A DNA stretch of 49,044 bases, the filler included, from Catajapyx aquilonaris (taxonomy: Eukaryota): assembly GCA_000934665.2 (NCBI GenBank). It is 2 parts of 2 records of this genome, joined end to end, with 100 filler letters (N's around TTAATTAATTAA, not from the genome) between each part and the next. Parts side by side here need not be neighbours in the genome. Positions count along the whole stretch, not along the records: positions 23,455 to 49,044 come from JYFJ02005701.1; 1 more part is not named here. The stretch is one strand, 5' to 3'. Below are positions 9,057 to 47,269 of the stretch, in pieces (the first letter of the stretch is position 1; every line of letters begins with the position of its first letter). The position numbers and the translations under genes are program-made. Below the pieces are notes generated by a model. The model searched no databases. It saw only the letters and a program-made list of their open reading frames with translations, and was not told the origin of the DNA.

Positions 9057-10738
9057 ATGGAAGAGGAATCCGGACCACCTGATGCAAAGAGGCAAAAGCT
9101 GTCAATAAGTGAACAGGAGGTAATAACAATTACAGCTGGTTGTGTCGGGAAATAATTACCTGATTAATTATGCATTTCTAGGGGAATATTCTTCCGAAGG
9201 AGTTGCTGCTGAAGATATTCGGATACCTGTTGAAGCCTGACCTGGTGAGGAGTGTGGGCATGGTGTGCAAGTATTGGAAGGAGATTGCCACGGACTCGAG
9301 TCTCTGGCACGAGGTTACGTTGTCGGGGTTCGTAGGGGATGATCCGGATAGTGTCACCAAAGTGATAGAGGGGATGACGCAGTTGAAGAGATTCACAGCC
9401 AAGTGTGTTCGGCCGTGTGAAGCAGATGTGTACCTGGATGCCATAGGTACGCAGTTGGAAGCGTTGGACTTGGACAGCCTGACGCTTCATGAGGAGCCTC
9501 TCTCTCGGCTTGCAACTAGATGTCCAAATCTCAAGCAGGTATGCCTGTGCAGGTCTGCTCATCTTAGCATCGTAATGCAAGAAAATGCACAAGAACGAAC
9601 CAAGGTCATGCCGTTTTCATACAATGCAATGTTTAGAACTTTATGAGTAGTGTATGTGAGCTGGTTTGTACTATCAGTCCAACAAGAATTGTCGCAGCGG
9701 CAGCTCACGAACTACAATCTACGAGCACGGGGACACGAGAGACTGTAGTTCGTGCGCTGCCGCTGCGACAATTCTTGTTGGACACCAGGTACCACTTCAG
9801 AACGTATGGAAGTGTAATGGAAACACAGTGTTGTGGGATGTTTCTAAATCAAGTCCTCTCTCCTGCAGGTTTGCATTAAACGATGTACCATGGCAAGAGG
9901 AAGCCGACATCCACTGGATATATTCGCATCGTGCCCAAAGCTGCAGTCCATTTCACTTGATGGAATCAAAGGAACAACTCGCATCGACCCATCGACTCCA
10001 CGACGTTGGGATAAGTTGCAGGAAGTTTACATCGACACAGACCTTTCTTCATCTGATGCGGAAGTGAAAGTACTGGCAGAACGTGTTGGTTCACAGCTGG
10101 TTAAGTTGACAGCAATGAGACTGCTTGTCCCAAAGTCATACGCACGTATTGGTCAATGTTCAAACTTGCAAGAACTTCACCTGATGCGGAATACCAGCAT
10201 GACAGACTCTTGCCTCTTGAATGGGCTGTCACCACTTCAGAATCTCCACAAGTTGTCCCTGCGAGTTGCATTATATCTCACTCCAGAAGCTATGCGTCAA
10301 TTCTTGCAAAGACCATACGAATTCAGGCATCTTCAGTTTCTGGATCTGTACTCTACCCTAGGCATGAATAGCTCTTGCTTGTCCATACTTGCAAAAAATT
10401 GTCCGCATCTGACCCATCTGATTCTGGATGAATATCAAAGGAGTTCATCAATTGCTAGGCTGAAAAATGCAGCTAAAGGCTTGGGGAAGCTGAATGTGAT
10501 ACTCAGGGGACTAGATACTAAGAATGAGGATAACCGACAACAACTGCAAGCATTAAATCCAAGTCGTAAAAGGGAAAGCTCGCCCCTGCCTTCAAGATGT
10601 TTAGTTTGTAGCGGTAAGTCAAGAAGAGAGAAAGGGAAACTGCTCCATAGTGATAGGTACAAACGTGCACTGAAATTCGCAAACATGCGAATGCGATCTG
10701 AAATGCGTAGTAGGAGGGTACGTTTCCATAGTCGATAA
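9057..10738 (+). CDS. F-box/LRR (FBXL-like) protein copy A, about 429 aa
   Basis: Exons 9057-9119, 9182-9538, 9869-10738 (phase 0, GT-AG). F-box LPKELLLKIFGYL..PDL..SVGMVCKYWKEIA.DSSLW; LRRs CPNLKQV, CPKLQSISL, CSNLQELHL, CPHLTHLIL; NLS-like PPDAKRQKL. Probable 5'UTR intron 8935-9016. Confidence 0.9.
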
Positions 10739-11925: not shown

Positions 11926-14900
11926 ATGGAAGAGGAAGCCGGACCACCTGATGCAAAGAGGCAAAAACTTTCACTAAGTAAAGAGGAGGTAATAACAATA
12001 ACAGCTGGTTGTGTCGGGAGATAATTACCATGATAATTATGCATTTCTAGGGGAATATTCTTCCGAAGGAGGTGCTGCTGAAGATATTCGGACACCTGTC
12101 GAAGCCTGACCTGGTGAGGAGTGTGGGCATGGTGTGCAAGTATTGGAAGGAGATTGCCATGGACTCGAGTCTCTGGCACGAGGTTCAGTTGTCGGGGTTC
12201 GTAGGGGATGATCCGGGTCGTGTCACCAAAGTGATAGAGGGGATGACGCAGTTGAAGAGATTCAAGGCCCAGTGGGTTCGGCCGTGTGAGCCGGATGTGT
12301 ACCTGGATGCCATAGGTACGCAGTTGGAAGTGTTGGACTTGGACAGCCTGACGCTTCAAGAGGAGCCTCTCTCTCGGCTTGCAGCTAGATGTCCAAATCT
12401 CAAGCAGGTATGCCTCTGCCGGTCTACTCATCTTAGCATCGTAACGCAACGGAACGCACAGTAACAGGTCTTGCCATTTTCATACAATGCACCGTTCAGA
12501 CCTTCAGACCAAAAACAATTTTTAACGCAGTCAGTTCCTATTCCTATTGCATTTTCTGAACATTTTCCCAATAAGATACGAGAAAAAAATTATATAGTTT
12601 TAAAAGATTGACAAAATTAATGACAAACAACCAACATTAGTACCCAATTGGTGCTACAAAAGCAGAACGGATGAAACCTGAAAATTTAAATACCACTTAA
12701 TGGACCACTAACATAGTCCTCTATCCTCAAAATAATGTTTTATTAAATTCCTCTCAGAAGACAATTAAAGATAAATGAAATTATTTTTGAATGCCACCAA
12801 TCCAGGCATGGGGCTTGCTCCTTCCCTTCTTACCCACTAGCATGGTACCTCGCTATTCTAGATTTTAAACTGAACTGTATACTTAGTGCAAAGCTTGGTG
12901 CAAAGCGCACTTCCTTATGGGTGTACATCAGGTACTTAAAGAAGAGCCACAGCCCATTCAGCTAAAAATAATAATTTCGGATGTCCATTTATATGGGCAT
13001 TTTTGGTCTCAGGAAGAAAAGAAAATTACAAGTTCTCTACAGCAACAAAGATTGTCACAGACACATCCTTTCGTATTCCCTAATGCACATTCCTTGCGAG
13101 TCCCAGGACATTCACTAAAAATCGCACTCTAAATATGAGTAAAAAATTAAAACTTATCAGATGAGCCCCTAGCTTATTCAGCAGCGGCATCCACCATTTT
13201 CATGGGTGATTTAATTTTCGAGGCCCAAGTCAGATATTCGACACTAGGTGGCTACACCATCATATGCACCACCCCCGCCCCCATCCGTACCGTCGTTTTA
13301 AGGTGCATTCACATATCCATGATTCCATATTAGAAGCCGTTCAAAATTCGACCACAATATATTGATTATGCAATTGAATTTTCCATTATAGCATCGTTCC
13401 AAACAAAGGGTCACCAACACACAGCACCGTTCCAAACAAACTGTTACCAACACAGCAGCGTTCCAAACAAAGGGTTGCCAACACACAGCACCGTTCCAAA
13501 CGAAGTGTTACCAACACACAGCACCGTTCAAACAAAGGGTTGCCATTGAACACAGAAGGTTCCAAACAAAGGGTTACCAACCGGTTACCAACACACAGCA
13601 GCGTTCCAAACAAAGGGTTGCCGACACAGCAGCGTTCCAAACGAAGGGTTACCGACACACGGCTGCGTTCCAAACAAAGGGTTACCAACACAGCAGCGTT
13701 CCAAACAAAGGGTTGCCAACACAGAAGGTTCCAAACAAAGGGTTACCAACACACAGCAGCATTCCAAACAAAGGGTTGCCAACACAGAAGGTTCCAAACA
13801 AAGGGTTACCAACACACAGCAGCGTTCCAAACAAAGGGTTACCAACACACGGCTGCGTTCCAAACAAAGGGTTACCAACACAGCAGCGTTCAAAACAAAC
13901 GGTTGCCAACACAGAAGGTTCCAAACAAAGGGTTACCAACCGCACAGCCACTTTCTCAACAAAGGGCTGCCAACATTTTTTTTCCCCATGTGTATGTGTA
14001 TGATTAGCATTGGACATGTTCATCGTGATTATCCAAATGCCTGATTAACGTGACCATTGACATTCCGAGTAATAGAAGTCAGTGCTAATTAATTCTCACG
14101 AACATTAACTATGGTAGCATTTGAAAGGTCGTACATTTCTACACCCGTGCATAGGACAATTTTTTCGAAACTGCAGTGACCGAATAGGAAGGATGGGTGT
14201 GGATGGAACAGAGGGAAGGGTCGATTTGACGGCGGAGACGACCAGTGTTGTTAATGTACGGAAAACGAGAGAACGATCTGCCGTCATCGTTTCTTACATT
14301 GTTGCTTCTTTGTTGACACTGTTGACTCATATTGTTCTGTGGGGGTATTTCCACGAAAACCTTAGTGACGTCAGATCGTTCTCTCATTTTCCGGGAGTCA
14401 GATGACATGTTATGGAGAACTTCGAGTTAGGGAAGTTTATTTCCTATTCTTTTACATTGTGACCAACCAAGCTCATCATTTTCTTCAACTTATAGAGAAC
14501 TTCGACTTAGGGAAGTACGACTTATAGAAGTTTTACTGTATGCATTTTGGATGAAGGATTCTGAACCTGTAGTAATGGAAACACAGAGTATTGTGGGATA
14601 TATTACTAAGTCAAATACTCTCTCCTGCAGGTTTGCATTAGACGTTGCAGCATGGCAGGAGGAAGCCGACATCCGCTGGATATATTCTCACAATGCCCAA
14701 AGCTGCAGTCCATTTCACTTGAAGAAATCAAAGGAACAACTCGTATCGACCCATCGACTCCACGAAGTTGGGATAAATTGGAGGAAGTTGACATCAACAC
14801 AGACCTTCCTTCATCTGATGCGGAAGTGAAAGTACTGGTAGAACGTGTTGGTTCACAGCTGGTTAAGTTGTCTGCAAAGAGACTCCTGGTTCCAAGGTCA

Positions 14901-15512
14901 TACGCACGTATTAGTCAATGTTCAAACTTGCAAGAACTTCACCTGATGCAGAATACAAGCATGACAGACTCTTGCCTCTTGAATGGGCTGTCATCACTTA
15001 AGAATCTCCACAAGTTGTCCCTGCGAGGTGCTTCGTATCTCACTCCAGAAGCTATGCGTCATTTCTTGCAAAGACCATACGAATTCAGGCATCTTAAGTT
15101 TCTGGATCTGTACCATAACCTAGGCATGAATGACAATTGCATGTCCATACTTGCAAATAATTGTCCTCGTCTGACCCATCTGATTCTGGATGGATGTCAA
15201 AGTTTCACATTTGCTGGGCTGAAGAATGCGGTTCGAGATTTATCTGATCTGAGGAAACTGAATGTGATACACAGTAAAGTAAGTACTGTGAATGAAGGTC
15301 AACGAAAAGAGCTGCAAGCATTAAATCCAAGACTTAAGGTTGAATGGAAAGGGTGCACCCTGGCTCCAAGATATTTAGTTTGGAGCCCTCCGTCAACTAG
15401 AAAGTATGAGAACATGTTCCAAAGTGAGAGGGGCCAACGTGCATTGAAATTCGCGTCCATGCGAATGCAACCTGTTGTATGTGTTGAGAAGGTACGTTTC
15501 CATAAGCAATAA
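11926..15512 (+). CDS. F-box/LRR (FBXL-like) protein copy B, about 433 aa
   Basis: Exons 11926-11988, 12051-12407, 14631-15512; same structure and high similarity to copy A; intron 2 is 2223 bp versus 330 bp in A. Confidence 0.9.
13395..13975. repeat. Minisatellite, about 18 units of mostly 30-33 bp
   Basis: Consensus ttccaaacaaagggtt(a/g)ccaacaca(ca)gcagcg with a recurring variant ending cagaagg; lies in intron 2 of F-box copy B and is absent from copy A. Confidence 0.95.
14410..14540. mobile_element. Right end of a pogo/Tigger-like MITE fragment
   Basis: Ends ...ttcgacttagggaagtacgacttatagaagttttactg followed by TA; internal repeat gagaacttcgaSttagggaagt near 14415 and 14495; matching left end not found. 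Confidence 0.4.
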
Positions 15513-18060: not shown

Positions 18061-20311
18061 TTATGAGGACTGTAGTTCCAGCCGCTTCTCCTCCATGAGC
18101 TGATCGCGTTGGTTGTGCACGTAGTCCAGGATGTTGGGAAGTCCTCGGACCACCGAGGCTGACAGGCCAGAACGTCGTAGGTTCATGTTGGTGCCATCAC
18201 GCCAGTGGTTGCAGCTCTCATAGAAGCACTCGACTCGTGACGTGGTGACTCTGCCGTCCCAGCCTCCCATGACGATGATCATGTCGTCCATCACCACCAC
18301 AGCGCAGTTGGTCCGGGCATAGTGCATGTCTGGGACCGACTGCCAAGCGTTGTTCTCGGGATCATATTTTTCTACACTCCGCAGGTACGTTTCACCGCTG
18401 AATCCACCGATGGCATACACCCACCCGTTGTAGGCCACGCACTTCAGACCTGATCGTGGAGTGCTCATGGCGCGAATAATGGTCCACCTGTCAGCTACTG
18501 GGTCATACACCTCTGCCAAGTCCAGCCTGAGATCCCCGGAGAATCCTCCAGCCACGTATATCTTACTACCGATAGTGGCAGCCCCAACGTCCGACCTTAT
18601 CACGTTCATCGGCGCTATGAAGCTCCACTTGTTGGTCTCGAGCTGGTACTTCTCGACAGTGTTTACTCTGTGCCGCCCATTGTGGCCACCGATGGCATAA
18701 ATTACATTGCCCAGCACCACTACAGTGACGTAGCACCTGTGGACATTTTTTTTATTGCAAAAGTATGAAATTATTTGTATACTGTCAACCCAAGTGCACA
18801 ACACATAATCGGACATACATACAAACGCACATCATTTTAATTTTATACAGCAGATTTATTTGTTTATGTTACTTTGTTCAAGTGTGAGGTTTTTTTTAGG
18901 TTTTGGATTTTGGTATTTCCGGACTTATTTGGCTTTTTGTTGGCTGACAGCAAGGCAAAATGTAAGCTCAAAGTTACTAACCTGGGGGTTTTCATAGGGG
19001 CAATATCCGTCCACTCCTTGGTTACAGCGTCAAAGCAGCGGCAAGATTTGAAGACAGTGTTGTTTAACTGTCCTCCTATGACATATATCTTGTGGCCAAT
19101 GACAGCAGCGGCGTGACATGACCTTGGTCCCTCTGTGTCCATTTCCCCTACCTCCAGCCATCGATCTGCTCGGACATCATACGTCTCGATATAGTCAGTT
19201 TCTCTGTTAGTAATCCACCCTCCGATGGTGAACAGGACATCACTAGGAAGGCGGGGTCGTGCCAGGTATGGTGTGGGCATTGGCTGTTTCCTCACGGTGA
19301 TCATGTCCATGTCATACAAGAACTTGAGCGTGTCGATGATGATAGGACGGCACTCGTCACTTCCCAAGACATAAGGATGAGGCTTGACAATATCCAAGAA
19401 CACACTGGCATCCATGAGCCCTAATCGCACTGCCCTTAGCAATTTGGCCATGTGCACCCGGCGTTCACTCGGATTAACATTGACCCATTTGACCACTGTA
19501 TTCCACACCACCTCCTCATCCTTCACGTTCAGCTCATCCCAAACTGCCAAAAAGAAACTTTGTTACTATCAAACTATCAGATCCATGCACTGTGTTGCAT
19601 ACTGACACAGGATGGTAGTGATCCTCTCGATTGACAACTCAAGCAGCTCTTCGGACTCATCTGCGACTTCTTCAAAGTGTCTCGTCAGGAAAGTCGTTGC
19701 AGCAGTGTGAAGCTTTTGGGCTAGGGGAAAATTGCTGGAAAGAGTCCATCGCATGTACAGTACTAATGGATGAATCTGAGTGGATGCCATTGCAGAGATT
19801 AATCACCATTGACGAACTGACCATACCTTGCAAAGTTCCAGATACCAATGCAGTTTGAGGGATCAATCTGCTTCTGGAGGAAGAGGCAGCAGTGTTGAAA
19901 CAGGCCCTCAAGCTGCAGGTAATCTGCGGCCACCAGCAAATCCTGCACGTTTTCATTAGAGATATTTGCTCGGCGTGTGTACACAAACTCCATAATCAGA
20001 GGCATTGTGTTTGAACTGACACCTTGAATTGTGACGTCCCACTTTTCCCGGTCATAAATTGGCGACAGGAAGAGTGATTGTAGAAATGGGGAGGCAGTTG
20101 CAAGGATGCCTCTGTGGACCTGGAAGACTCCTCCATCGTCGAGGCGAATGATGCCGTCGCACAGCATGCGGTTTGTGTACATGTCATAGTATACGTTTGT
20201 GTCACTGACTGACCTGGCATGCTTTGGTGACTGGTACAGGCTGCGGTTGGTGCTCCTCGTCACTTTCTTCTCCATGGCTAATCTCACTGAGGCTCCTCTT
20301 ATTGCTTCCAT
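18061..20311 (-). CDS. KLHL10: Kelch-like protein 10 (BTB-BACK-Kelch, cullin-3 adaptor), about 616 aa
   Basis: Exons 20311-19827, 19734-19607, 19543-18982, 18736-18061 (1851 nt, phases consistent). BTB LCD..I....G.F.VHR.ILA..SPF; BACK DELNVKDEEVVW; KLHL10-typical CRPIIIDTLKFLYDMDM...TP..ARPR.P..VLF.IGGW...IETYD.RADRW; kelch GG repeats. Confidence 0.92.
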
Positions 20312-20960
20312 GGATAAATCACTGACCTTTTGCTAGTTGAAGTCCTGGCTGCTGGTTATCACAGAGATATAAATCCTTTGAAGATGTATGAGACTCGCTA
20401 TGCTGCGGTGAGTATATCAGGTTTTGACAACAAGTAGCCAATGCATTCTTATGGAAACCATATTTTATTCAAAAATTAAGGATTTGAGGGTGACAATGAA
20501 CGGCTGGACAATACTGAAATAATTACATAGGTGAAGACACTAACTATTGTAGGCTAAGTCACGAAGTAAATCACATTATTTTAGTGAAAGCTGTTTAAAG
20601 CAGACCCTTTGTACAGTATAATTGGACCGTAGTATGCAATAATGTGTCAGGCTGGACTGTCAATTTTTATGTGTTTACGTTAATTCACTTAATGTAAACA
20701 CAAATTGACGTCACAGTAATTAATGATTCAAGTTCGGAAAATATTTTATGCCAAAACCAGAAAAAAGAAACTATTTTTCAGCACTTTATTTCTTCATGCG
20801 AGAGGCCAGCCTGTAGTTGGGTAGGCAGATCAACTGGCAGCAAGGTGACAAAAATATTAAAAGCAATGATAATATAGTGAGTTCTAATGTGTGTCTTTCT
20901 ATAGCTAATGTCTTCTTCTGACCGTGAAATCATGTGCTTGTGAATGCTTAATTAGCCAGC

Positions 20961-23000
20961 TTAATTATTCATTCTCATAATATTTTTTTTAGTTCTGCCC
21001 TTTGCACTAAACTTCTCGACAGCGAAAACCAAAGAGATGCATCCGTAGCTAATGAGCGTTCCCAAGAAGAGACCTTTCATCTGATTGAAGTTCAACGCAA
21101 GGGACGGGGTTGGCAGCAGATACCCCTTGTTTCTGGCCTCTAAAACCTTCATGTCGTACACTACGTCGAGGGTGTACTTGTCATAATATTCCAGCAAACC
21201 GGCTGCTTCCATGCGCAGCATAATGCAGTCAAACCTCGACAAGAGGATGTCATGCTTAGGAACCATAACTGCAAGTGTAAACTTGGTCGCCGTGACATCC
21301 AACCAGGTGAAGGGCAAGTTTCCAACCATGTCCAGGTGTTCATAAGCGGCTCTCAGGATCAAGAACGTGGCACTTAAGCAGGAGAAGTCCTCGGTCAGAG
21401 TCTCCAACACGCATTCCTCGATGGTGTCCTTCATTTCCAGTAGGTCAGCCATTCTTCTGTGACTCTCAAAGTCCGACTCGACCAACAAGGCCTGAGCTAA
21501 TAGCCCATGTCGAGCTAAGCTTCCCCATTTCCATCCATGTCGCGTTGTCAAATCCTCAATGTCGCTGTAACAAGTGTAACAGAATTTCTTTACTACGTGG
21601 CTACGTGGTGGAGCTCAAAGAGAGTATCCGAATTAGTGGACCGAGTGCATCTGGTCGTGGCAAAGCCACAATAACGTTCGTTAGCCTGCTGCTCCACAAG
21701 GCGTATTCTACAGTAATTTTTGCGGTTACATAATCCGCAATTGAAAGGACACCCCACTCAAAAACCAAGTTTGGCTCTAAAAATCGGGCAAAAAATCCTG
21801 AATCCGAAGGTGCAATCCGTTTTTCGCTACACGGAACGGTAATCCCAGGGCGAGGGGTCAAAATGATGAAATTCAAATAGTGCGCTAGAAACTGGCCGTC
21901 CGCTAGCGACGCCCTCGGGACCTTGGGAACTGGAGGGCTGCTCCCGCCTGCCCGCGGCCCATCCCAGAGCGGTGCAGCCCTCCAGTTAACCTGTTCCCCG
22001 CGTGGTGGCGCCCCTCATTAGTAGACGACACACTTTGACACCTCGCCCTGGGACTACCGTTTTGCGTAGCGAAAAACGAATTGCACCTTCGGATTCAGGA
22101 TTTTTTGCCCGATTTTTAGAGCCAAACTGGTGTTTTGAGTGGAGTGTCCCTTTAACTAAAATATCGTACCTGGGAAGATGCTCGCGATCTGGAGTGGCTA
22201 GAAATCCGATGAGTTTGGCTGTGTATCCGCAGGTGATGACCACTGCGAATGTCCACCAGAGCGACAGGAACATCCGGGCAGAGTGTGACCTCGGGACAAG
22301 GTTTGGGTTCTCCTCTATCAGGGTCAACAGGACGTAGGTCAGTGAGTATGGGTACAGGGAAGGAGGTTCCTTGGGAAATGGGTAGGTTACCTTCTTGATG
22401 GTGACCACCAGGAGACGCCAGAGGAATAGACTTCCGATGATGCACGAAATGGCAATGAGAATCCACATTCCAGGGGTGTAAGGTCTGATGATGACATCCC
22501 AGGAGTCGATTATTCGCGGTTGTCGGAAGAGGAATGTTCCGGCTGTTGTGTAGTACGGGTAGCCGTACTCTGTCACTTCCAAGGGTGGAGTGAATGTGAC
22601 GCAGGCAGGACCTATGTCGCATTCTCCGTACAGCACGGCCCCGACCAATCCCATCCACGTTCCGTCGTCCATCTTTGGGTCGGTGGACACTGCATTTTCC
22701 ATTTTGGACACTCGGAAGTCAAAGTTCATGTAGGTGCTCAAATCCAGAAACACGAGCTCAAACACGTAGAGATGTCGTCGCTCGAACATTCGCTGCAAGA
22801 TTGTTGTGTGATCCGCTTCGAAAGCGATGTAGCAAATACCAGAGATGGTTCTCCCGTGGAGGTCAAGGGTCATGTCTGGGAACAGTTGGGTCAACATTGT
22901 GGCGTTTGAGTCGATCTCGACTATCTCAGGCTCCCCGTTGTTGCAGAAGAAGCAGGTTGACGAGAGTGAGGAGGTGTTTGTATCCACCACAAGCTTGTAT
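20961..23000 (-). CDS. Divergent ionotropic receptor (IR/iGluR-like chemoreceptor), 5' end unresolved near the gap
   Basis: Exons 23000-22170 and 21564-20961 joined in phase 2. Motifs LFPD...DLHGR, DGTWMGLVGAV..GECDIG, IIRPY...MW, SHSARMFLSLWW.FAVVITCGYTAKLIGFL, MEAAGLLEYY, L.FNQMKGLF. Confidence 0.85.
21745..22151. mobile_element. Kolobok-like MITE with about 117-bp TIRs in the IR intron
   Basis: Left arm aaggacaccccactcaaaa...gggcgaggggtcaaa is the reverse complement of 22035-22151 with few mismatches; flanked by TTGA/TTAA; internal 14-bp inverted repeat 21928-21941/21974-21987. Confidence 0.8.
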
Positions 23001-23354
23001 CTGAAGAAAAATAATTGGAACTATCGATGAATACGAGAGCAACCAAGTGCGCACCCACACTAGCGCAGCTGTTGTTCTGACAACAACGTTGACATAGATA
23101 TTCCCCATATTAGCCAAATTCACACCCGTAGCATGGAGACGCAAACATTCGATTCGCTCGTCTCTCTGTTTGGGCCGTTGCCAAGGCTGGCCATTTTGAA
23201 GCGGGGGAAACGCCAACGAGGTATGAATAGGGTACAGGCAGGCCGTAAAGGTCCGCCATCTTTGATGGTTTTGGCGGCCATGGCACTTCACGGCAAGAAC
23301 ACGCGCGAATTCGAATGTTTTTGCCGTACTTACGGAATTAATATGTAGAAAAAG

Positions 23355-35200: not shown

Positions 35201-38200
35201 AACAAATTACTGAAACTCGAGAAAAGTACTTTCATAACACAAAAAGCTGATTCCTCATGATTTGAAAGTAAAAGAAACTTAAAAGATGCTCATGTAGCAA
35301 TATATCTTGGGGCAATATTGGCTAAATACTGGCATACATATTGAGCAATATTGGGGTAATATTGAAACTGCAACTTTCCTCTATTGACATCCCAGGTAGC
35401 AAGCCTTTGTGAGCCCCATATTGGACCCACATGGGTTTGCTAACTGGGGATGGGGAAGTGGCTTCTTCGCATGGTTGGTTGGTTGGTTGGTTTTTTTCCC
35501 CCCAGCTGTATGGCTCTTCTTGTTGAGCCTTCGCAGAAAAAGCCACCTTTCCATACCGCCACCGCGGATTGTCCTGCTCGCACCAAACAGTATTGCCATC
35601 GCGAACGACTCTAGCAAATTAATGTCACAATGAAGTACCTTGGGGGTAAATGAGCCGCATGCAGTGGAGTTTCCTGCCACCTTTGCACACATATAATGGC
35701 CAAAATTAATTCGCATTGTTGTGGGATAAATCGGAGAAGACTTGTAATGATACACCGACAACACCGCCATCTGGACACGGGAAGCTGCCCCACATACACC
35801 CACATTGCCCATATTGCACCCAATATTGCCAATGTGGCGCCGATATATCCACTATATTGGCTAAATAGTGGCAATATTGCCAATGTGGTGCCGATAAAGC
35901 CAATATTTAGCCAATACTGGCCCAATATAACTTTCTACCTGGATATGGAGTTATTGCCTAAGTAGGGAGGCAACGAGTGGCCAGACACATTTGCTTGTGG
36001 ATTTTACACAAAGTACAAAAAGCGCCTATGTTGTTGGAATTGACATTTATACTTTTTGCTCATGTCAGTGTATGTCCATATTATATGCCAGGCAAGTGTG
36101 CAAACCATGCTCCAGAAATAAAAGCCATGCAAATCTAGGTGGTGCATTAGTAAGACCCATCATTTTAGCCCAGAAATATTTTGCAGGCATCCAGTAAGCA
36201 AATACCTGCCATGCAGTTATGTGTACCAGTATCTACAATGCTGAACTTGTTAGTACAGTTTGTGATGATTCACCCAACATGTATCTTAAGGCATCAAATA
36301 TGTCAACAATAAGGTGCCCTTTAATTTCAAACGCTTTACATAGCACATAGTAGGGCTTATACATTTTCATCTGCACAATCATTCTGAATCCAAAGAAACA
36401 CTTGTGAAAACATGTCACTGTGAGATGGGGAGTGGATTTATGCCACACTGTAAATATACAGTATTATCTTCAAGACTGCAACTTGGTTATTCTTGATCAC
36501 TGCAATCAGAAAGCCAAATGCACCTGTTATCATATCTCTGTTACTCAGTCAGTTCCAATGAGTTCACTATCTATGTACGAATCTATGTACATGAATTTTG
36601 TTGTTGCTTCAGTTATAATGCAGTAACGTAGAGGTCTTGCTATAACAGTCACACTTCAGCATAGACACCTTATTTTGGTTTTCCATTGAACTCACTGGAG
36701 CTTTCTAACATAAATCCATTTCATTACTTTAGGCTACAACAATGCATATGTGAACAGCATTATTGATTTTCAGCAAATTCAGTAAAAATTGTTACTGGCT
36801 CTCAGGTTAACCTGGGTATTTTCCATGTTCATATATGAACATGGAAAATACCCAGGTTAACCTAATAACATTATAATGTTATTAGGTCTATGCAAAAGTT
36901 CATGCGGGTGACTTTGCATGGTCAATAATTTAGCACTTTGATATCCGCATGTTTTGTGGTGGTGGTGTTACTCAACAAACAGGTGAAAGGCGTCCAGTGA
37001 TGGTTATTTATTTAGTTTTGCTCTATCAGTCACTGTTTGACCTCATTTCGAGATGAACCCTGACAAGACCCATCGCCACTGTTTTAATCAGGGAAAAACT
37101 GCAGCAGAAGCCAAATGGCTTTTGTGCGAGACATACGGTGAGGACATAGTGTCAAAACACATTTGTGAAGAGTGGTTCAAGCGCTTTCGCCATGGTGATT
37201 TTGATGTCACCGATTGGCACAGGTCTGGGTGCCCCTAGGCATCAGTTGATTAAGATCCCAGGAGGGCATCATCTACCATGAGCTGTTGCAACAAGGTGAA
37301 ATTATCATTGCAGACCAATGCAGTGCACAACTAAAGAAACAGGCCAAAGTCCTGCAGCAGATGTGCAAAAAATATGGCCCAAACCAAGGGCAAGTCATCC
37401 ATCAGCACAACAACCCATGGCCTCATATGGCGAAAGAGACAAAAATGACGTTGGTGGAGCTAGGATGGGAAGTGCTACCACACCCTGCGTACTCGCCAGA
37501 CATTGCCCCACCCCCTCTGGACATAGTATGACAGGCCACGACCAGTTGGCACATAGGCTCCCTCTCTGCACACTACTGTCACTCTCAGGGGGCGAGTCGT
37601 ACTACTGTACATATACACGTAGGTGATGAGTCACCGCATGGACTAAGTCCACCAGAGTGCTATAGCCATCTCTCGCCTCTGTTGAAGTGTCTCTCAACCT
37701 CTCTGACCGCTATAGAGAGTGAACCTGGAGTGTCCTGGTCATTATATTAAACAGGGAAAGTGATAACTAAGGTAACTACATGCACCTAGGTGATGAGTCA
37801 ATGAGTTCTGGGGCAGAGACACTACTAGCAAATATTCTGAATATGATGTTAATAATTGAATGGGTTAGTGCCATAACGTGCTAAAAACCTTCATTCCGAG
37901 ATATGGGCTTTCAAAAGTTTGGCGTAATATGGCAAATCATACAAAACAAGGAAACTGATTCGTGATTTTCTCGTGATCTATGGGGAATTTTGCTAACTAA
38001 GTGATGCCCACTTGTGAAGCACAATGGTGGGACATTCAGACACGTGCAAGCTCAAAAAACACAAAAGTGTGGCTTAGCACATTATGGCACTAACCCCTAT
38101 TTACATTTGTAGTAATTGAAAAATGCATGTGACTTGCCTCTAGAAGTGTAAAATCATTTCCTTCTTCAATGTAGGAAGCAGCCCTCTTGAACGCCTTGAA

Positions 38201-41200
38201 TGCCTCCTCCTCATTGTCAAAGTTCCCAAACAGGTCCTGTGTGAGCAGACTTAGGTAGCTATGCAGAACTGCCTTGCGTGCTTCACTCCAGCTTCCATCA
38301 CCATGCTTTAGCTCCATTTTACGCAAAGCCAAGTCTAATGCCCTTGTGGCCAACTTGTACTTTTTATATTTGCAAGCTAGGGCGGAGAGGACCTGCAGGG
38401 ATTTGTCATCCATTGCAGTAACGATTAGGCCTGATTTCAAGGCTTCCAGCGCCATGTCTTCTGCATCTTCTGAGCCCAGGACACACTGGTGAAACAAGTA
38501 GGGTGGGCATGGGCCACAGTTTCACAGAAACTTGTCACTTATTCATAACTTCATGATAATTATGTAAAAATATATCATTGTCTTGCTGGCATTAACCTTT
38601 TCATTCTGGCTTGTATTTCTTTTTCTCTTGCATGCAAAAGTACATTTTGGAGAGCCTCTACTAATTGCTAGAGCTGTTCAAGGTATGACTATTGATAGCT
38701 ACATACATTAGAGATGAGCAACCTCTTAAACCAAATAACCTGGTAGAAGCAAGTACCAAGAAAGACAGCCTCGAAAAGGACACTTGGAAAAATGTCAAGT
38801 AATGCAGTGGTACTGGTGATTCAGGTCACAAAAGCTGGATCATGGGAGCTGATAAGATGACAACAGTGAAAAAATATTCTCAATCCAAGTGAGCAAAACA
38901 CAATGTGATGGCTTGCCAGAGCAGAAAGGTTAATTTCATTAGACTCCATGCTCAAAATGGTTTTCTGTGACCAAGGTAGGAATGCTTAATGCGCCGTACC
39001 ATGGCTCTAAAAAGGAAGTGGTGATACTCACACGGCATTTGAACTCATAGAGGACAAGAAACTTTTCACCCATCTTGTTGGGCCAGCAGTTGCTGATCTC
39101 ACACATGCCACGGCAAGTCCACACCATGGACAAGCAACTCTGTGCCACCTTTAACCTCTGTTCTTCTGATAGGGAGTCCAACAATTCCCATCCAGCAGAA
39201 ATGCTCATGAGCAATGCAAGTGTCATCTCCTTATACTTGGTTCCCTGCAAATATGTAGCAAGTCAGATAATATATTTTTTCAAACGTTTTGTTGTCCTGC
39301 ATGATGAAAGGGTTACTATCTTCCATCCTGCAATACTACTCAAGTTATAATCCACAAGTTAACTTACATCTTCTACGAATTTGTAGAATTCAAAGGCTGA
39401 AGAGCAGAGACGGTAGTGGCTGTACCTTTCGCCCCACTTGTGGACTGATACGTTCCAAGCTAGGGTCCCAAACCACTGGAGGTCATCATCTAATTTCTCA
39501 TACGTCGTCGTTCTTTCTAAGATTTCCTGCAGTACGGGAAACATAGGCAGTGAACACAGTATTGAAATGTTATGTGTGTAACTTAGTCATGAATCACTTT
39601 GTTGCTTCCTTATCTCAAAAACATATTTTCATCATATGTTTGGATTAGACACGCTATAGCTATACATCACATAAGTGAAGATGAATATGGCTGTGGTAGG
39701 TCAGTGCTCATCACACAGTGACAAAGGTAGAATATAGCTCAGGAATGCAATAAAAAAGGTCCAGAATGCTGCATGTAACCTGATGTAACCTGAATGAGTG
39801 CTTGCTCAAAACTTACTATATGGTCATGTTGCACAATAATTGTAAATTCCAATTCCAGCATTACAGTTTATATTCATCATGTTTACCTCATCCTGGTACT
39901 CCTCAGTAACGTCATCCATATCATGGGCATACAAGAGAAATCCTGTTCAGATCAAAAATTCTGTTTCAGGATAATCAAATGAAAGATTTGACCTTGGACT
40001 TGTTTACATGCTAGTGACTCAGACAGAAAATAGGACTTCCTGGCTCTTTATGAACATTTAGGAGTAAATGGCCTTTACCAGGCAATAGAGATTTACAATG
40101 CTACTTAGAGATATAAATAACTAAAAACAGCCAAAATGAGACTTGGCAGATTTCTCTTGTATGCCCATGATATAAGAGATATAATATAGCTTTTCCCTCT
40201 CATCAAGATGTCATTTACCATAACTGGCATCCACCAGTGTAGCAGTGAACAGTGTATCAGAATGGTTCAGTATTTCCTGCAATAGACAAGTTATGGTCTG
40301 CAGGAGTTGCTATAGGTATAGGTTACATTGTAACATGGCATCTCTCATTTAAAATTGACAGAAATTTCAGCCTTAGAATTATGTAAGTGTATTTAACTAA
40401 TATACAGGGTGGTTCACCGCCAAAGACTGACAGAAAATGGCTGGGATGATGGATAGGTCACCCCTGGTCATGTAAATGAAGTACCAGTACATAAAAAATT
40501 TGGAATAATGTAAAGGAAGTCTCAGACTTACACAAATAGTGACTTGGGATTGTCATTTGAATATGACTTTGTTCACAGAACCAGGGAGGACCAATCCACA
40601 TATCCCATCCATTTTCCACCACATATCCTTGGGCAGTGAGCCACCCTGAACTTTTTCATTTTCATTGATTCATCCAGTCATTTATTCTGTCATTTATTCA
40701 CCAGCTGTACTTGCATGTGACTTGCCAACTAATAACCTCTACAATCACTGAGCAAATGGCTTATAATTTCATTGCAGCTGAAAGTATTCCTGAATGGTAA
40801 TGAAGGTCATCTATCAGCATAGGTTAATGTTCTCTTTTCACTTCTACAGTAAAATGTTTAATTGCATTCCATTATTATAAAAGGATGATTCTCTGTATCA
40901 CAACATGTATCTTTGCTCTTCCTAAAACTAAATAAGAGTCACCCAACCTCCAAATCTAAACCTTACTTTTTGGATGGCAATGGCTGTTGTTAACACCTCC
41001 TCCAGAAAGTCAGCTAGTTGTGCAACACACACATTGAGTGGCTCCAAATCATCAGTTTTGTCCTTTTCCTCATTACACAGCTGCAGGTATGACCTGAAAT
41101 ATGCACATATTCATGGAAAAATAATTACAATTTAGAACTGGATTATCCATTAGCTACTGTCATAAATCTCATAGTAACAAAAAGCTCACAAAATAATGCT

Positions 41201-44200
41201 AGATTAACAAGTCAGAAACCTGCATGAAGGTAAAGCATGGTGGACCATGAACATTGGAACCCAGTACATTCTTTTAAAAATTGGTGCAGGCTCCAGGAAA
41301 TGCAGCATGATCACAGTCATGCAGACCTCATCTGCATACCTTACTATAACCTTCTGAGCCTTCAGCCTAGTCGAGGGCTCCAGAGCAGCAGCAACCTTCT
41401 TCATTGCTTCTATGCACTCACGCTGCTTTTTAAGAGAAGCAGCCTTAACTGCTACATCAGCGAGATGTTCTTCCAGGGAATGATGTGTCTCTACTGCAGG
41501 CAAAAGGACATCCAAGCTGGTAGCCTGCTCCAACATCTCCTTCTCCTTCCCTTGAAATACGGCCAGCTTTAGCTTCACAATCTGAATTGGAATCTGCCAA
41601 AGAAGATTTTCCTCCTCAGGGTCGTTCACATTCGCAATGACTGCCTCAGCTCCATCCATCATTCCCTCTTCCATGAGGCACTCGGCTTGGTTGCACCGCA
41701 TTTGTATAGCGGCCCCAATGTCCCCTGTCTTGCTGGTAATTTCGGAAAGAATAGCATACCAGCACGAAGCTTGTAAAAAGGATTTATTCTCCTGGAACTG
41801 AACTGCTAGATCTGAGGCCAGGGCTATTATGGCATTGAGCCCATCTGCAATGTACAAAAAATTATAAATGCCATGTTAAAATAACATTAAATTAACATTC
41901 AAATAACATATGAAAATAACAAATCAAAATGAAAAATAAATAAAACCATTTCACCAAGCATAATACAATCCTTCTGGTTGAAAATTTTTCTGAAATACTA
42001 TTACACAGAAAACATGCTCCCTAGCTCACCCTGGTTGCTGCTTATTGTGGGGCGCCGTGCAACTTCTTCTAAAATGGTCAAAGCCTTGTCAAAAGACTCT
42101 ATTATGCCTGTGTAGAATACAAAGCGATACCTAATATGCCAGTTGTCATCAGAAGCAGTGGCCTTGTCAACCATTTCCATTGCCAAGTGGTACTCTTTAT
42201 GGTCAATCAGAAGCTTGGTGATCTGTTAAATGATCAAAAACAAAGGGTGCTTAAAAGGTGCTTGTTGTCACCACTCATGGTGTCACAGGAAATTCTCATG
42301 TGGAACAAACCTTTATCAGATCATTTCCGGAGATATCAGGAAGCTGTCGTATATGGTTTAAACCAGAGCAGATACCCAACTCACTCTCTTCTTTCTGGCT
42401 CGCCATCAAGGCTTTCACTCGTAAATAGAGAAGATCAAAGGACTCCCTCTCTGCAATAATAATAGTGGTCAACTACAGTAGTTATGCTGTAACCTGTATT
42501 TTTAAAAGACTAGCTATGCTTGCAGAGACTTCTCAATTTACTGACAAAGGATGCAATCAAATGTTCCCATATTATGACATAACGTGGGTGGAAATGAAAA
42601 TATTCTTGACAGAATGGTGCCTGCAACAACTGAGTCAACTTGAGGAATCAAATTACATGGTATGTTTGTTTTGTATGATTATAAATAATGTAATTAATCA
42701 TATATAGAATTGGCTTTGGTCTATGCCTCTGTCCAGGGAAGTCATCATCTCTGACCCGCTAGGTGCATGTAGTACACTTTTTGGAGTGTCAGACACAGCC
42801 TCCTCAGAAAACATTGTTCAGCAATGAAAAAGACCTTACTATAATTATTATCACATCACAATCTGTGAATACTTGAGAAAAAGACACCATCTGCTGGAGT
42901 CAAAATCGAATAATTTCGTCTTTCATCAACAGAAATGATGGGGCAACTGAAAAGTAATAAGTACCTGATAGAAAAAGTGGTCTCCTCAGAGCATTCAGGT
43001 AGTTTTCTTTTCCACTGTATTATATCATATCTCAATGGTACAATGCAAAGCTATTATTTGTATGTAGCAAGTAACTTAGTTCTTCCAACTTTCAAAAGAT
43101 TGCCAGTTATTTGTTATATTATCATCATCATCATCATCACATTTCCCTATAAGGGGTAGTCAACGATGACGGGAGCCACAAGCTAACCCAAAATATGAAC
43201 TAAATTAAAACTTGTCAAAATAAACCTATGAACAACCCGTCCCGCCCCCCTCTGCCCATCTCAGACGACAAACACTCAATATTAAATTTAACTATTACAC
43301 TATACAACGTGGTACTTTGAGAAATCAAGTATCTCCCCCCCCCCACCCCCCTGGAAGAGGAATCAGCAACTGTTAAATTCCTCCAAGTGACTGGAATATT
43401 CTCCTCTAAACGACCAGAACACCCACAGGCCAGCGAGAAGAACCAGCATACGGAAATCCACACCCGAACTCCAAGTACTGTGCAGGACAGAGAGAGAGAC
43501 AGGCATCCTTACAAGCATGACTACCGGTGTCAACCTATGCATTACTGTGCAAGAGATATATTTGCCAACCTTGTAGTTCTGCACAGCACCCAGACCCCGA
43601 GTATGAACCTCCAGACGCCGACTCCTCCCACCAACCTGCAAACATTCTAGCCAATCAAAAGAATTCAATGGGCACTGCCATTCCTCACAAACCCGTGAAT
43701 ATGCTACCCATTAATTAACCTACGCCATTTACACCTATCCAAACAAACAACCTTAGCCTCAGCCACGTCCATGGTCCTATTGACACATGAACGTCTCGGC
43801 TTAACACTAGCAACACCCTTAAGACACTGACCCACTTTATTTGTTATATTATAATGCCAAAAAAAGCTAAATTGTCCAGAGCCTGTTATTATTGGTCAAA
43901 TATGTCACATAATCATATAACTAACAGTTTGGTCCAAGTATCACAAATTTAACCCAAATAAGTTGTCATTTTTGTGTAGCTTCTTGCTCTCCATAATATT
44001 ATACACGAGGTGCCCAATTATGCTGTATAAAAGCTGCTATATTTGACCCAGCAACCTGGTAATATTGGGTTCCTCAATTGGGGTGCAAAACGCTACACAA
44101 ATACAACAACTTTGGCCAATGTTTGCCATAACTAATAGGACACGGATACTTGTCACACCCTGTATCTGCACTAAACTAAATAAGTCATCCATTGTAGAGT

Positions 44201-45249
44201 TCAGGCAACCATTTCATATTCCTGTGAGTCTTGCTCTACTGCAGCAGCTTGGAAAAATTATAATATATCTGGAAAAACTTAATTAAGGGAAACTAAGTAA
44301 CAAATCTAGAATGGAAACAAATGCTTTCATCTCATTGGCATGATTAAAAAGTCAAAATATCTAAGTCGAAAAAGTAAGCATATTCCTTCAGGAACTTCTT
44401 GAGTATATCTTACACATTCATGTAATTGAATGAAAAGCACTACATACCCTTCAACCCAACGTCACAAGCATCAACGGCCTTGTCCCAGTTCTCCTCCCCC
44501 CATTCCAGGTAAGTGGTGGCTAGCAAGCACATGGTTTTGCTATTGTCCAGAGAGTTGATTTTCACACTAGAACTGGCAGCAGCCTTGCCTGCACGGTAGC
44601 TCTCCCGCAGCCAACGCACCGCATGAAAAAACTTCTTCTCCTTCCTGCAGTTCAGTCCAGCATTGAATGCAACCCTCGCCAGGTAGTCACAGTGTGATGG
44701 AAGAAGTCCAGGAGAAACCATCGCTAAGCAGAATACCTTTAAGGCCTGTGCGGCATTAGAAACACCTGTCTGGGATGGCCGGGACAAAATGTCACACTCA
44801 ATAACGTGGGCTGCAGCCATGTTGGCTTCTAGACGAGATCTTAATCGGCTCTCTCCATGACGTTGGACCATGTCCCGAAGGCGCTTTGTGAGATCATTGA
44901 CCAGGTGAATTCCTTCAGTGGCATCCTTCATAAGGTGGGCTGATAGTGCTAGGCGGGTAAACAGGAGGCCAAGATCAATGCCTGATATAAGGAAGTCAGG
45001 CAAGTTGACACTTGCTATGTCAGGATTATCAGCGATTAATGACACTCCTTGTGCAGCCTTCCATATAACTTCTGGGGGAACAGACTTGTCTTGGAGCACC
45101 ACTCTCTTGTTCCACACATGTGCAGCCACCTTTACAATGAGCAACTCTTCCTTATCAGTCAGCCCATTAGCTGCAGTCTGCATCACCTTGGACATAAAGG
45201 TGACCACGCTGGGCCAATTTGCCTCCTCCAAACTTTTTAGAACCTCCAT
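32284..45249 (-). CDS. TEX11: TEX11/ZIP4 (SPO22) meiotic TPR protein, about 927 aa (889 without two micro-exons)
   Basis: Exons 45249-44448, 42450-42311, 42222-42030, 41844-41340, 41093-40967, 40276-40219, 39942-39887, 39526-39368, 39244-39032, 38485-38138, 35180-35104, 32389-32284, all phase-consistent (2784 nt). TEX11-like motifs AAHVWNK, FNAG......F..A..WLRESY..GK, K..CLLATTYLEW, LQWF..LAWN, LVLYEFKCR, WIMTRSWNVG, KWMQLSL. Start codon uncertain. Confidence 0.88.
32630..33050 (+). mobile_element. 5'-truncated non-LTR retrotransposon 3' end
   Basis: C-terminal zinc-knuckle-like CSLC..GNKGNWFHLWWEC followed by an A-rich tail aataaataaataataataataaaataataaaa at 33017-33048. Confidence 0.6.
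33249..34010. mobile_element. Tc1/mariner-type foldback MITE with about 300-bp inverted arms
   Basis: TA-caagggttgtttcttaagtc...gacttatgaaacaactctcg-TA; 33249-33548 is the reverse complement of about 33725-34010. Confidence 0.85.
35289..35942. mobile_element. CACTA/EnSpm-like non-autonomous element with subterminal repeats and a nested 58-bp mini-element
   Basis: Inverted ends catgtagca..attggctaaatactggc / gccaatatttagccaat..ctacctgg; many aatattgcc repeats; nested cccaggtagca...tgctaactggg at 35391-35448. Confidence 0.55.
36804..36887. repeat. Two overlapping spacerless perfect palindromes (60 bp and 28 bp)
   Basis: 36804-36863 aggttaacctgggtattttccatgttcata|tatgaacatggaaaatacccaggttaacct and 36860-36887 acctaataacatta|taatgttattaggt. 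Confidence 0.9.
36882..37510 (+). mobile_element. Internally deleted mariner (Mos1/Hsmar-like) transposase remnant
   Basis: Left TIR ttaggtctatgcaaaagttcatgcgg; HTH region GKTAAEA...LCETYGED.VS...C.EWFKRFR.GDFDV.D..RSG.P; GIIYHELL; LGWEVLPHPAYSPDIAP; stops and a large deletion. Confidence 0.9.
37862..38096. mobile_element. MITE with 23-bp TIRs
   Basis: gggttagtgccataacgtgctaa / ttagcacattatggcactaaccc (1 mismatch); superfamily not assigned. Confidence 0.7.
40405..40648. mobile_element. Tc1/mariner-type MITE
   Basis: TA-cagggtggttcac...gtgagccaccctg, with imperfect inverted similarity extending inwards (gaaaatggctgggat..ggataggtc / gaccaatcc..atcccatccattttc). Confidence 0.6.
43123..43836 (-). 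mobile_element. 5'-truncated RTE-clade LINE insertion with 16-bp TSD
   Basis: TSD ttatttgttatattat at 43107-43122 and 43837-43852; minus-strand ORF end RRSCVNRTMDVAEAKVVCLDRCKWRRLING* resembles RTE C-termini; (GAT)n tail. Confidence 0.8.
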
Positions 45250-45360
45250 TGCCTGTGGAGGGTGCATGTACATTAAGATTTCTAAGAGGACGATACAATT
45301 TTAGGCATCCACTAACCTACGTATCTTCATATTCTATTAAAAAAAACTGCATCAGCAAGG

Positions 45361-45448
45361 TGTCATTAACTCCAAAACTCTTGTTCTCGCAAGCTTTGAA
45401 ACACGTGTTTCAAAGCTTGCGAGAACAAGAGTTTTGGAGTTTATGACA
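45361..45448. repeat. 88-bp spacerless palindrome (74-bp perfect core)
   Basis: Core 45368-45441 aactccaaaactcttgttctcgcaagctttgaaacac|gtgtttcaaagcttgcgagaacaagagttttggagtt, extended by 6 bp after one mismatch. Confidence 0.92.
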
Positions 45449-47269
45449 GTGGCAGACCTACATTTTTTGGGCCCAGAAGATTGTACTGTTTTGGGGGGCC
45501 CTGGGCAACCAGCAACAATGGGGCAACATCCAACAAGGTCCAAAGGGCTTGTTGGATGTTGATAGAACCTGGAGACCCAAATGGCGAAGAATAGGGTGGT
45601 GGGAAGAAGTCTCGGTGGAAATGGATCCCATTCCCACCAGCGACAATATCTGGGTAACCGTTGTTATCTTTGTCAATGTTTGGGTTGTTCTGACAGATCA
45701 CCATAAAAAATAAGTAACCATTGCATCTAAGATATTGATTAAATTTTATGTATGCATTATCTCACTTCACAAAAATAATACAATATCAGTATTAGTATCA
45801 TCAAGAGCTAATTGGTATCATACAATACGCCTCTAAAAATCACTCAACATTTAGAGGAAATCCAGCACGTGTACTGTACCTCACACAAAAGGTGTCCTTA
45901 TCAAAGGCAGTCCAGTACGTACCCTGGGAAACCTCATACCACTTCCCAGATTGCCACACATGTGCACCCAATTATCCAGGTACCTCCCCGGAACTGCCTG
46001 TCTTTTATTCCTCCTTCAAGGCCCCAGACCAAAACTGATCAAAAAAAAGCAACCCTTCATAATCGTCTGAAACAGGCTGACCACTAGCCAACTCCAAAAA
46101 ATAAATAATAATAATAAAAATACTGTACAGTCCCTGGCCAAGATCAATGCGGGGTTCATTCTCTAATAGAGAGGTACATCATCAAAGGGGGGCAAGTTAG
46201 GATAAAATGGTTTAACTCTGATTTTTGATATAAACATTCACAAGTGACATGAGTGCAGCCTGATTTGAGAATTCAGATGTCTTTTTATGGTTTTTATAGC
46301 CATAGAACTATTAAGCTGTGCACCAACTAATGATTCCATGATCAAGCTGCCAAATTGTAGGCAACGAAAGACAATGAATAGATTCTGGATACCTTGGCGA
46401 GCTCATACAAGCTGGGAGTTTGAGGCACTGCAAGCTCCCGGGAAAATCTTTGAGATTTGACCAAATCAATGACAGGGACATTTTGAGGTCATAGGAAGTG
46501 GGTGTTAAGCATATTATAAGGCCAATATTAATTTAGTACTTCAACCAAATTGCTTCTGATTCTATTACTACAAGAGCAATATTTTAATAACAGACACTTT
46601 TTAAAAACTCCATAGATTTTGTTGAAAAAAATAATTGCTTCAGGGACTCATCTGGAATTAAGGGCCCTGAAGCTTAAGCTTCATTAGTTTAATAGTAGAT
46701 CCGCCACTGGTGAATGAGAGACCTTTTAGAGAGAAGGCAATGGACGAATGCAGTTCTAGAACTGTTGGCTTCTCACTCTCACTCAGGCTACAACCTACTT
46801 TTGCAAAATTGGGATCACACCTCCAGTCATATTATTTTACTAGGATAGTTCTTGATTATTTTGTGCAACAAACTGAAAATCATCCATAATCACTGTTTGT
46901 TCTGTGTAGGCCTACCCCACGACTGTAGTAGAAGTTCGGCCTTCACCACATATCGTAACCTGCACCAAACTTGCCTTATTCATTGTATAGTAGTAGTTGT
47001 CAATAATATATAATTAAGGTAAAACTCTGGGTTTCGCTCACGGCCACTCTCCCTTTTCTCCCCTCCCCTCCCCTCCCCTCCCCCCTCCCCTCTCCCCGTA
47101 ACCCAGCATATTTTTCAGAATAAAAGGGGGAGGGGGCTGTCTATAATCTAGAAAACATAAAATAATCCAGAAATAAGCAGACGTTGGGCCAAAAGTTTGT
47201 TTTGGGTTGAATGAGTCGCCCAAAAGTTATTGGTAGTTACGTGCTCTATTTTCTCCCGCGTCTGCCGCC

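Follow-up and report, generated by a model that had tools for sequence, protein, structure and literature searches.

A perfect 25-nt inverted repeat lies within what is most likely a single intron of a divergent TEX11-like gene of Catajapyx aquilonaris, and it is best explained as a young, selectively neutral, locally templated inverted copy. We place the probability of this reading at about 0.55. The whole stretch of DNA that was analysed, referred to below as the window, is 49,044 nt long, and all positions count along it. The two arms (39918-39942 and 40149-40173) are 100% complementary over 25 nt and stand 206 nt apart; the repeat search that located them bears out the exact 25-nt reverse complement that had been claimed for these two segments in an earlier note on this DNA. 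When up to three mismatches are allowed, the 25-mer has two sites in the window, which are the two arms themselves, and the mean number of sites in 100 dinucleotide shuffles is 0.00. Since no matches are expected from the shuffles, the 25/25 identity is attributed to a copying event and not to chance. The coordinates of the repeat, the host gene and the putative micro-exons A and B are collected in Table 1.

Table 1. Positions in the window of the inverted repeat, the TEX11-like gene that contains it and the putative micro-exons.
Feature	Position	Strand	Remarks
Divergent TEX11/ZIP4/SPO22-like gene	38090..45273	-	Assigned by Pfam and the TEX11 profile; 3' part modelled only approximately
Modelled exons of the TEX11-like gene	45273-44448, 42450-42311, 42222-42030, 41844-41340	-	Boundaries read from sequence
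Modelled exons, continued	41093-40967, 39526-39368, 39244-about 39002, ORF 38521-38090	-	Boundaries likewise read from sequence
TEX11 exon upstream of the interval	40967..41093	-	Ends in phase 0, ...AIAIQK/gtaagg
Interval between the TEX11 exons	39527..40966	-	1440 nt; one intron (skip model), or three with the micro-exons: 690, 276 and 360 nt
Putative micro-exon A	40219..40276	-	58 nt, phase 0 to 1; tattgcag/GAAATA...GTTATG/gtaaat
Upstream arm (in transcript direction)	40149..40173	-	Intronic in every gene model; begins 45 nt past the putative donor (40218)
Loop between the arms	39943..40148	-	206 nt; putative branch region and weak polypyrimidine tract of the acceptor of B
Downstream arm	39918..39942	-	Coincides exactly with nt 1-25 of putative micro-exon B; ordinary intron should B be no exon
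Putative micro-exon B	39887..39942	-	56 nt, phase 1 to 0; ctgaacag/GATTTC...GATGAG/gtaaac
TEX11 exon downstream of the interval (exon C)	39368..39526	-	Phase-0 start; WFGTLAWN; profile positions 611-657

The route to such a repeat would be short-range template switching or templated insertion. During replication or break repair, a polymerase would briefly copy about 25 nt of nearby DNA as its reverse complement, leaving a perfect stem-forming pair, 206 nt apart, inside the TEX11 intron. The normal mRNA would most likely join 40967 directly to 39526, with both arms in one 1440-nt intron and removed together.

Short-range template switching has been described as producing repeats of this kind (Loytynoja and Goldman 2017, PMC5453318; Monttinen and Loytynoja 2022, PMC8794818). 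As in those mutations, there is a nearby reverse-complement copy, here 206 nt away, with perfect arms and sharp boundaries against dissimilar flanks, and the mechanism would likewise make a hairpin-forming pair in one step. The sharpness of the edges is seen when the arms are aligned together with 100-150 nt of flank on each side: the best local alignment covers the 25 nt only, and the flanks are unrelated. The published events were traced by means of an outgroup or a reconstructed ancestor; for the repeat described here, a single extant sequence is the basis on which we infer how the copy arose, that it is young and that it is neutral. Because the arms are perfectly identical, few neutral substitutions would have accumulated since the copying; solving exp(-50d) >= 0.05, we calculate an upper limit of about 0.06 for d, the substitutions per site, at the 5% level. 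On the other side, perfect identity is equally expected from selection maintaining a stem, and one arm stops precisely where a usable CAG/ acceptor lies, which is the layout that a masking switch needs.

The TEX11-like host gene

The earlier note had named the host gene as TEX11, an identity upheld by a SPO22 domain, a collinear profile match and the WF..AWN motif. The ORF at 44440-45300 matches the Pfam family SPO22 (PF08631) with an E-value of 2.6e-06 and a score of 27.5 bits, which is exactly the gathering cut-off (27.5). The TEX11 profile was built from 38 orthologs of 800-1010 aa; the orthologs were reached through an Owenia protein among the phmmer relatives, from which 42 named TEX11-like proteins, spread over many animal phyla, were found. 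Collinear matches to this profile are given by six ORFs of the window, at positions 122-283, 295-326, 418-508, 611-657, 672-749 and 751-846. The invariant W-F...W-N motif (alignment columns W633, F634, W639 and N640) is present as WFGTLAWN in the exon 39526-39368. Because the six ORFs match the profile collinearly, the host gene is a genuine, though very divergent, TEX11/ZIP4 that runs on the minus strand from about 45273 to 38090.

The divergence is evident from database searches. A phmmer search with exon 1 against 1.84 billion cluster representatives gave six relatives at E <= 0.001, with 27-39% identity over 68-124 residues, and no protein more than 39% identical to exon 1 was found among these representatives. 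The 223-aa exon ORF gave no match to longer proteins. A profile search with 20 orthologs returned 247 matches; the best 120 of them come from vertebrates, molluscs, cnidarians, echinoderms and the like, with no arthropod TEX11 among these best 120. Metagenome scans gave 106 pattern matches for exon 4, none of which was confirmed, and no match for the exact 25-mer of the repeat. A by-product of the analysis is a gene model of a very divergent TEX11/ZIP4, with at most 39% identity to the listed relatives and that only around the SPO22 core (68-124 residues).

Some 95 nt before the modelled start codon of TEX11 (45273) there is a near-perfect palindrome of 74 nt (45368-45441, with perfect overlapping arms of 44 nt). 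The palindrome, at about 45367-45443, gives sub-threshold matches to two miRNA precursor families, with 39.9 bits against a gathering score of 93.

Putative micro-exons A and B

The positions reported earlier, with the intronic arm about 45 nt after the donor of a 58-nt exon and the other arm opening a 56-nt exon, are confirmed by the sequence; every coordinate and count in that note is correct. The same is true of its claims about frame, namely that A and B stay in frame only jointly, that the flanking exons join in frame without both, and that a single skip shifts the frame. The model with A and B has no stops in 769 codons and the model without them none in 731, and dropping only B or only A gives a frameshift with 8 or 9 stops, the first of them a few codons into the exon 39526-39368. 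By a crude score, the splice sites of A are on a par with those of the accepted exons, and no exon of the gene has weaker ones than B (acceptor pyrimidine fraction 0.47, donor 4/7). Upstream of A, the AG acceptors at 40297 and 40309 (minus strand) are also open and frame-restoring in combination with B, so the boundaries of A are ambiguous.

Comparison with the protein family speaks for the shorter product. The skip-model protein, which contains neither micro-exon, scores 118.3 bits over positions 125-746 of the 38-ortholog profile, as against 104.8 bits with the micro-exons, a penalty of 13.5 bits, and the extra 38 aa are placed as an insertion. We also measured an anchor spacing, defined as the number of residues from the L of ...ADFL... 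to the W of the invariant WF..AWN motif. This spacing is 22-33 aa in 40 of 42 orthologs, the other two being Lineus (39) and Clavelina (53). In an enlarged set of 155 TEX11 proteins, from which four proteins without an anchor were left out, 152 have a spacing of 24-34 aa; two Lineus isoforms stand at 39 and one further protein at 53. The gene described here has a spacing of 29 aa in the skip model and of 67 aa with the micro-exons, the latter exceeding all 155. By this comparison the skip model, in which 40967 is joined to 39526, fits the TEX11 family architecture. The junction marks the start of a variable-length loop; since the insertion point opens this loop (39 aa in Lineus, 53 aa in Clavelina), an extra 38 aa could be tolerated but would not be ancestral.

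Annotated TEX11 isoforms, of which 13 pairs from 9 species were compared, show no pair that differs in the loop before the WF motif. In the Pecten X1 isoform, 10 aa are inserted at a point 5 residues past the beginning of the WF motif, which is a different site from the micro-exon loop. No homology was found between the micro-exon ORFs and the TEX11 profile (E-values of 4.4 and 9.2, with nonsensical profile ranges).

The open frame of A and B was set against decoys, which were taken as all AG...GT segments of 25-300 nt with crude splice scores at least as high as those of B. The 1440-nt interval holds 28 acceptors and 18 donors, giving 97 candidate exons, with 4 open singles in frame and 8 open pairs that restore the frame. 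Among 48 control segments of 1440 nt from the window, the mean number of frame-restoring open pairs is 10.3, and at least one pair is present in 37. Open, frame-restoring pairs are thus expected by chance, and the open frame of A and B carries no weight. Codon usage was scored as log-odds, with a coding model derived from 2637 codons of the window's other genes and a background of non-coding trinucleotides. The score of A and B together is 9.33, above that of 81% of 37 windows, each of 38 codons, in the remaining TEX11 exons (mean 6.11); among 370 stop-free non-coding windows, 5 score at least 9.33. When the search is corrected for, a decoy exon or pair with such a score is present in 6 of the 48 non-coding control segments. 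The codon usage of A and B is suggestively coding-like, and is the one result that favours exons, though it is not significant. We put the probability of A and B being genuine exons, used at least now and then, at about one in three.

An origin of A and B by duplication and divergence from the first part of exon C (each begins with EIL) was considered and rejected; at the protein level, 77% of 1000 shuffles score at least as high. The best DNA match of this comparison is a 16-nt direct near-repeat on the minus strand, identical at 14 of 16 positions, between micro-exon A (40242-40257) and the intron just upstream of the exon 39526-39368 (39547-39562). A match of this quality is reached by 1.7% of 300 shuffles, and the near-repeat is probably due to chance.

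Predicted RNA structure and rival readings

The stem is present in both the MFE and the centroid structures, with a mean pair probability of 0.92 in contexts of 421 nt and of 1501 nt alike, and the isolated duplex is predicted at -40.6 kcal/mol. The earlier note had also claimed that one bulge would extend the pairing over the acceptor CAG; with g39943 bulged there are indeed two further pairs, a39944-t40148 and c39945-g40147, which reach into the CAG. In the predicted fold this CAG is mostly paired (probabilities of being unpaired of 0.19, 0.37 and 0.06). The fold of a 411-nt segment has a z-score of -2.72, and 1 of 100 shuffles folds as well. A stem that would form in the pre-mRNA and cover the acceptor of B is thus supported in silico. 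Should B be an exon, these folding predictions would make it reasonable to expect that its acceptor is masked; should it not be, the stem would be a harmless hairpin that is lost when the intron is spliced out. A search for known RNA families in 38000-45500 found none in the 1440-nt interval.

These predictions bear most directly on a splicing switch, in which A and B would be lineage-specific cassette micro-exons and the stem would hide the acceptor and the first 25 nt of B, giving transcripts with both micro-exons, with neither, or with A only and a frameshift. We consider such a switch unlikely. Stable complementary boxes are predicted within the same pre-mRNA, with the pair probability, duplex energy and CAG pairing given above, and one arm abuts the CAG/ site that is the candidate acceptor of putative exon B. 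The frames behave as the switch needs, the codon usage is coding-like, and B, having the weakest splice sites in the gene, is a kind of exon that structure can tip. Raker et al. (2009, PMC2724269) describe experimentally proven Drosophila stems that conceal splice sites, draw remote sites together or cause introns to loop out, with an enrichment at weak acceptors; the arrangement described here resembles these long-range intronic stems in that the boxes are more than 150 nt apart and one of them is beside a weak acceptor. Against the switch stand the absence of this segment from the family, with its 13.5-bit profile penalty, and the controls, 37 of 48 of which contain open decoy pairs and 6 of 48 of which match the codon score after search correction. 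Moreover, the validated Drosophila examples were found through conservation; their boxes are conserved across 12 genomes and were proven by disrupting and compensatory mutations, whereas the pair described here is known from one sequence. One of its boxes would also be exonic, within putative exon B, unlike those intronic stems. The indirect evidence on a splicing switch is mixed, and leans against it.

The templated origin and the switch could also be combined, so that a template switch has just created an exon-intron duplex which gates two frame-coupled, lineage-specific micro-exons, the switch being caught before compensatory evolution. This we hold to be more doubtful than either the switch or the templated copy taken singly. 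If it were true, TEX11 would toggle among the family-typical protein, a form with 38 additional residues in the variable loop and a frameshifted product. The locus would then offer a rare view of a structure-based splicing switch that begins by a single templated mutation and not by slow paired substitutions, and it would do so in a fast-evolving gene that sets meiotic crossover. As things stand, the repeat is an instructive negative, in that local template switching alone would yield a perfect short complement beside a plausible acceptor. Since template switching makes such complements, and since about three quarters of random 1.4-kb stretches of the window hold open, frame-restoring micro-exon pairs, RNA or comparative data would be needed before either feature is taken as regulatory.

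The main alternative among neutral origins is a transposon. The 256-bp unit 39918-40173 would in that case be a small non-autonomous DNA transposon (MITE) with terminal inverted repeats of 21-25 nt, inserted in the intron, which we judge improbable. The size of the unit (about 256 bp) and its perfect inverted ends are consistent with a MITE; at the extreme ends, the 4 nt ATAT are self-complementary, and a TA or ATAT target duplication could hide within the 25 nt. A Mos1-type transposase remnant lies near (37041-37238), which implies that such elements were once active hereabouts, but the arms do not resemble the ends of this mariner remnant. No clear target-site duplication was found outside the 25-nt arms, and a search of the 49-kb window yielded no further copy, whether of the whole unit or of any stretch of the 1440-nt interval. 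Nor are there arm-like ends beyond chance: 25-mers with at least 16 matches to the arm number 9 in the window, as against 3-10 across five shuffles. The interior of the 206-nt loop shows no further inverted symmetry. The window has seven perfect inverted repeats of at least 25 nt with arms within 2 kb. Five other perfect inverted repeats (at least 20 nt) were examined, and each proved to be the core of a longer repeat with mismatches (44-230 aligned nt), the pattern of old transposon-type ends.

Three further readings have been given little credence. The stem might act on the 1440-nt intron itself, independently of the micro-exons, for example by shortening its effective path. It persists in the 1501-nt context, and the looping out of introns shown for Drosophila stems (PMC2724269) would offer a precedent, but the stem closes only 206 of the 1440 nt and an action of this sort is very unlikely. 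Slightly less probable still is a role of the duplex as an ADAR substrate, in which an intronic editing-complementary sequence would pair with exon B and direct A-to-I recoding. In the classic arrangement of such sequences an exon pairs with an intronic complement close by, and an exon-intron duplex of about 25 bp resembles it, the exon here being putative. This reading requires that B be a real exon; in addition, known guides are conserved and usually imperfect, whereas this duplex is perfect. An assembly artefact receives the least weight of all. The window is a draft with 90 N, but the N runs lie near 8.4, 23.4 and 47.9 kb, away from the repeat, and a 25-nt inverted copy in unique sequence is not a usual assembler error.

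Neighbouring features of the window

About 700 nt beyond the 3' end of the TEX11-like gene, the plus strand carries the remnant of a Mos1/mariner-type transposase (37041-37238), recognized by the Pfam domain HTH_48 (PF17906; E-value 1.7e-15), with a palindromic sequence upstream of it (36804-36887). Two paralogous copies of an F-box/LRR-like gene pair (9182-10738 and 12051-15512, plus strand) have long, intron-poor ORFs; the Pfam LRR match is weak (E-value 1.2e-4) and below the cut-off. The segment 13378-14044 is open in several frames on both strands and carries a peptide-like repeat unit, QTKGYQHTAAF, with variants; a tandem DNA repeat is the probable explanation. Three long ORFs at 18061-20332 (minus strand) make up a BTB/BACK/Kelch gene, which adjoins an ionotropic glutamate-receptor-like gene on the same strand (20961-23020; Lig_chan, E-value 1.4e-10). 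The latter contains a perfect 49-nt inverted repeat (21768-21816 and 22080-22128), which extends to 124 aligned nt.
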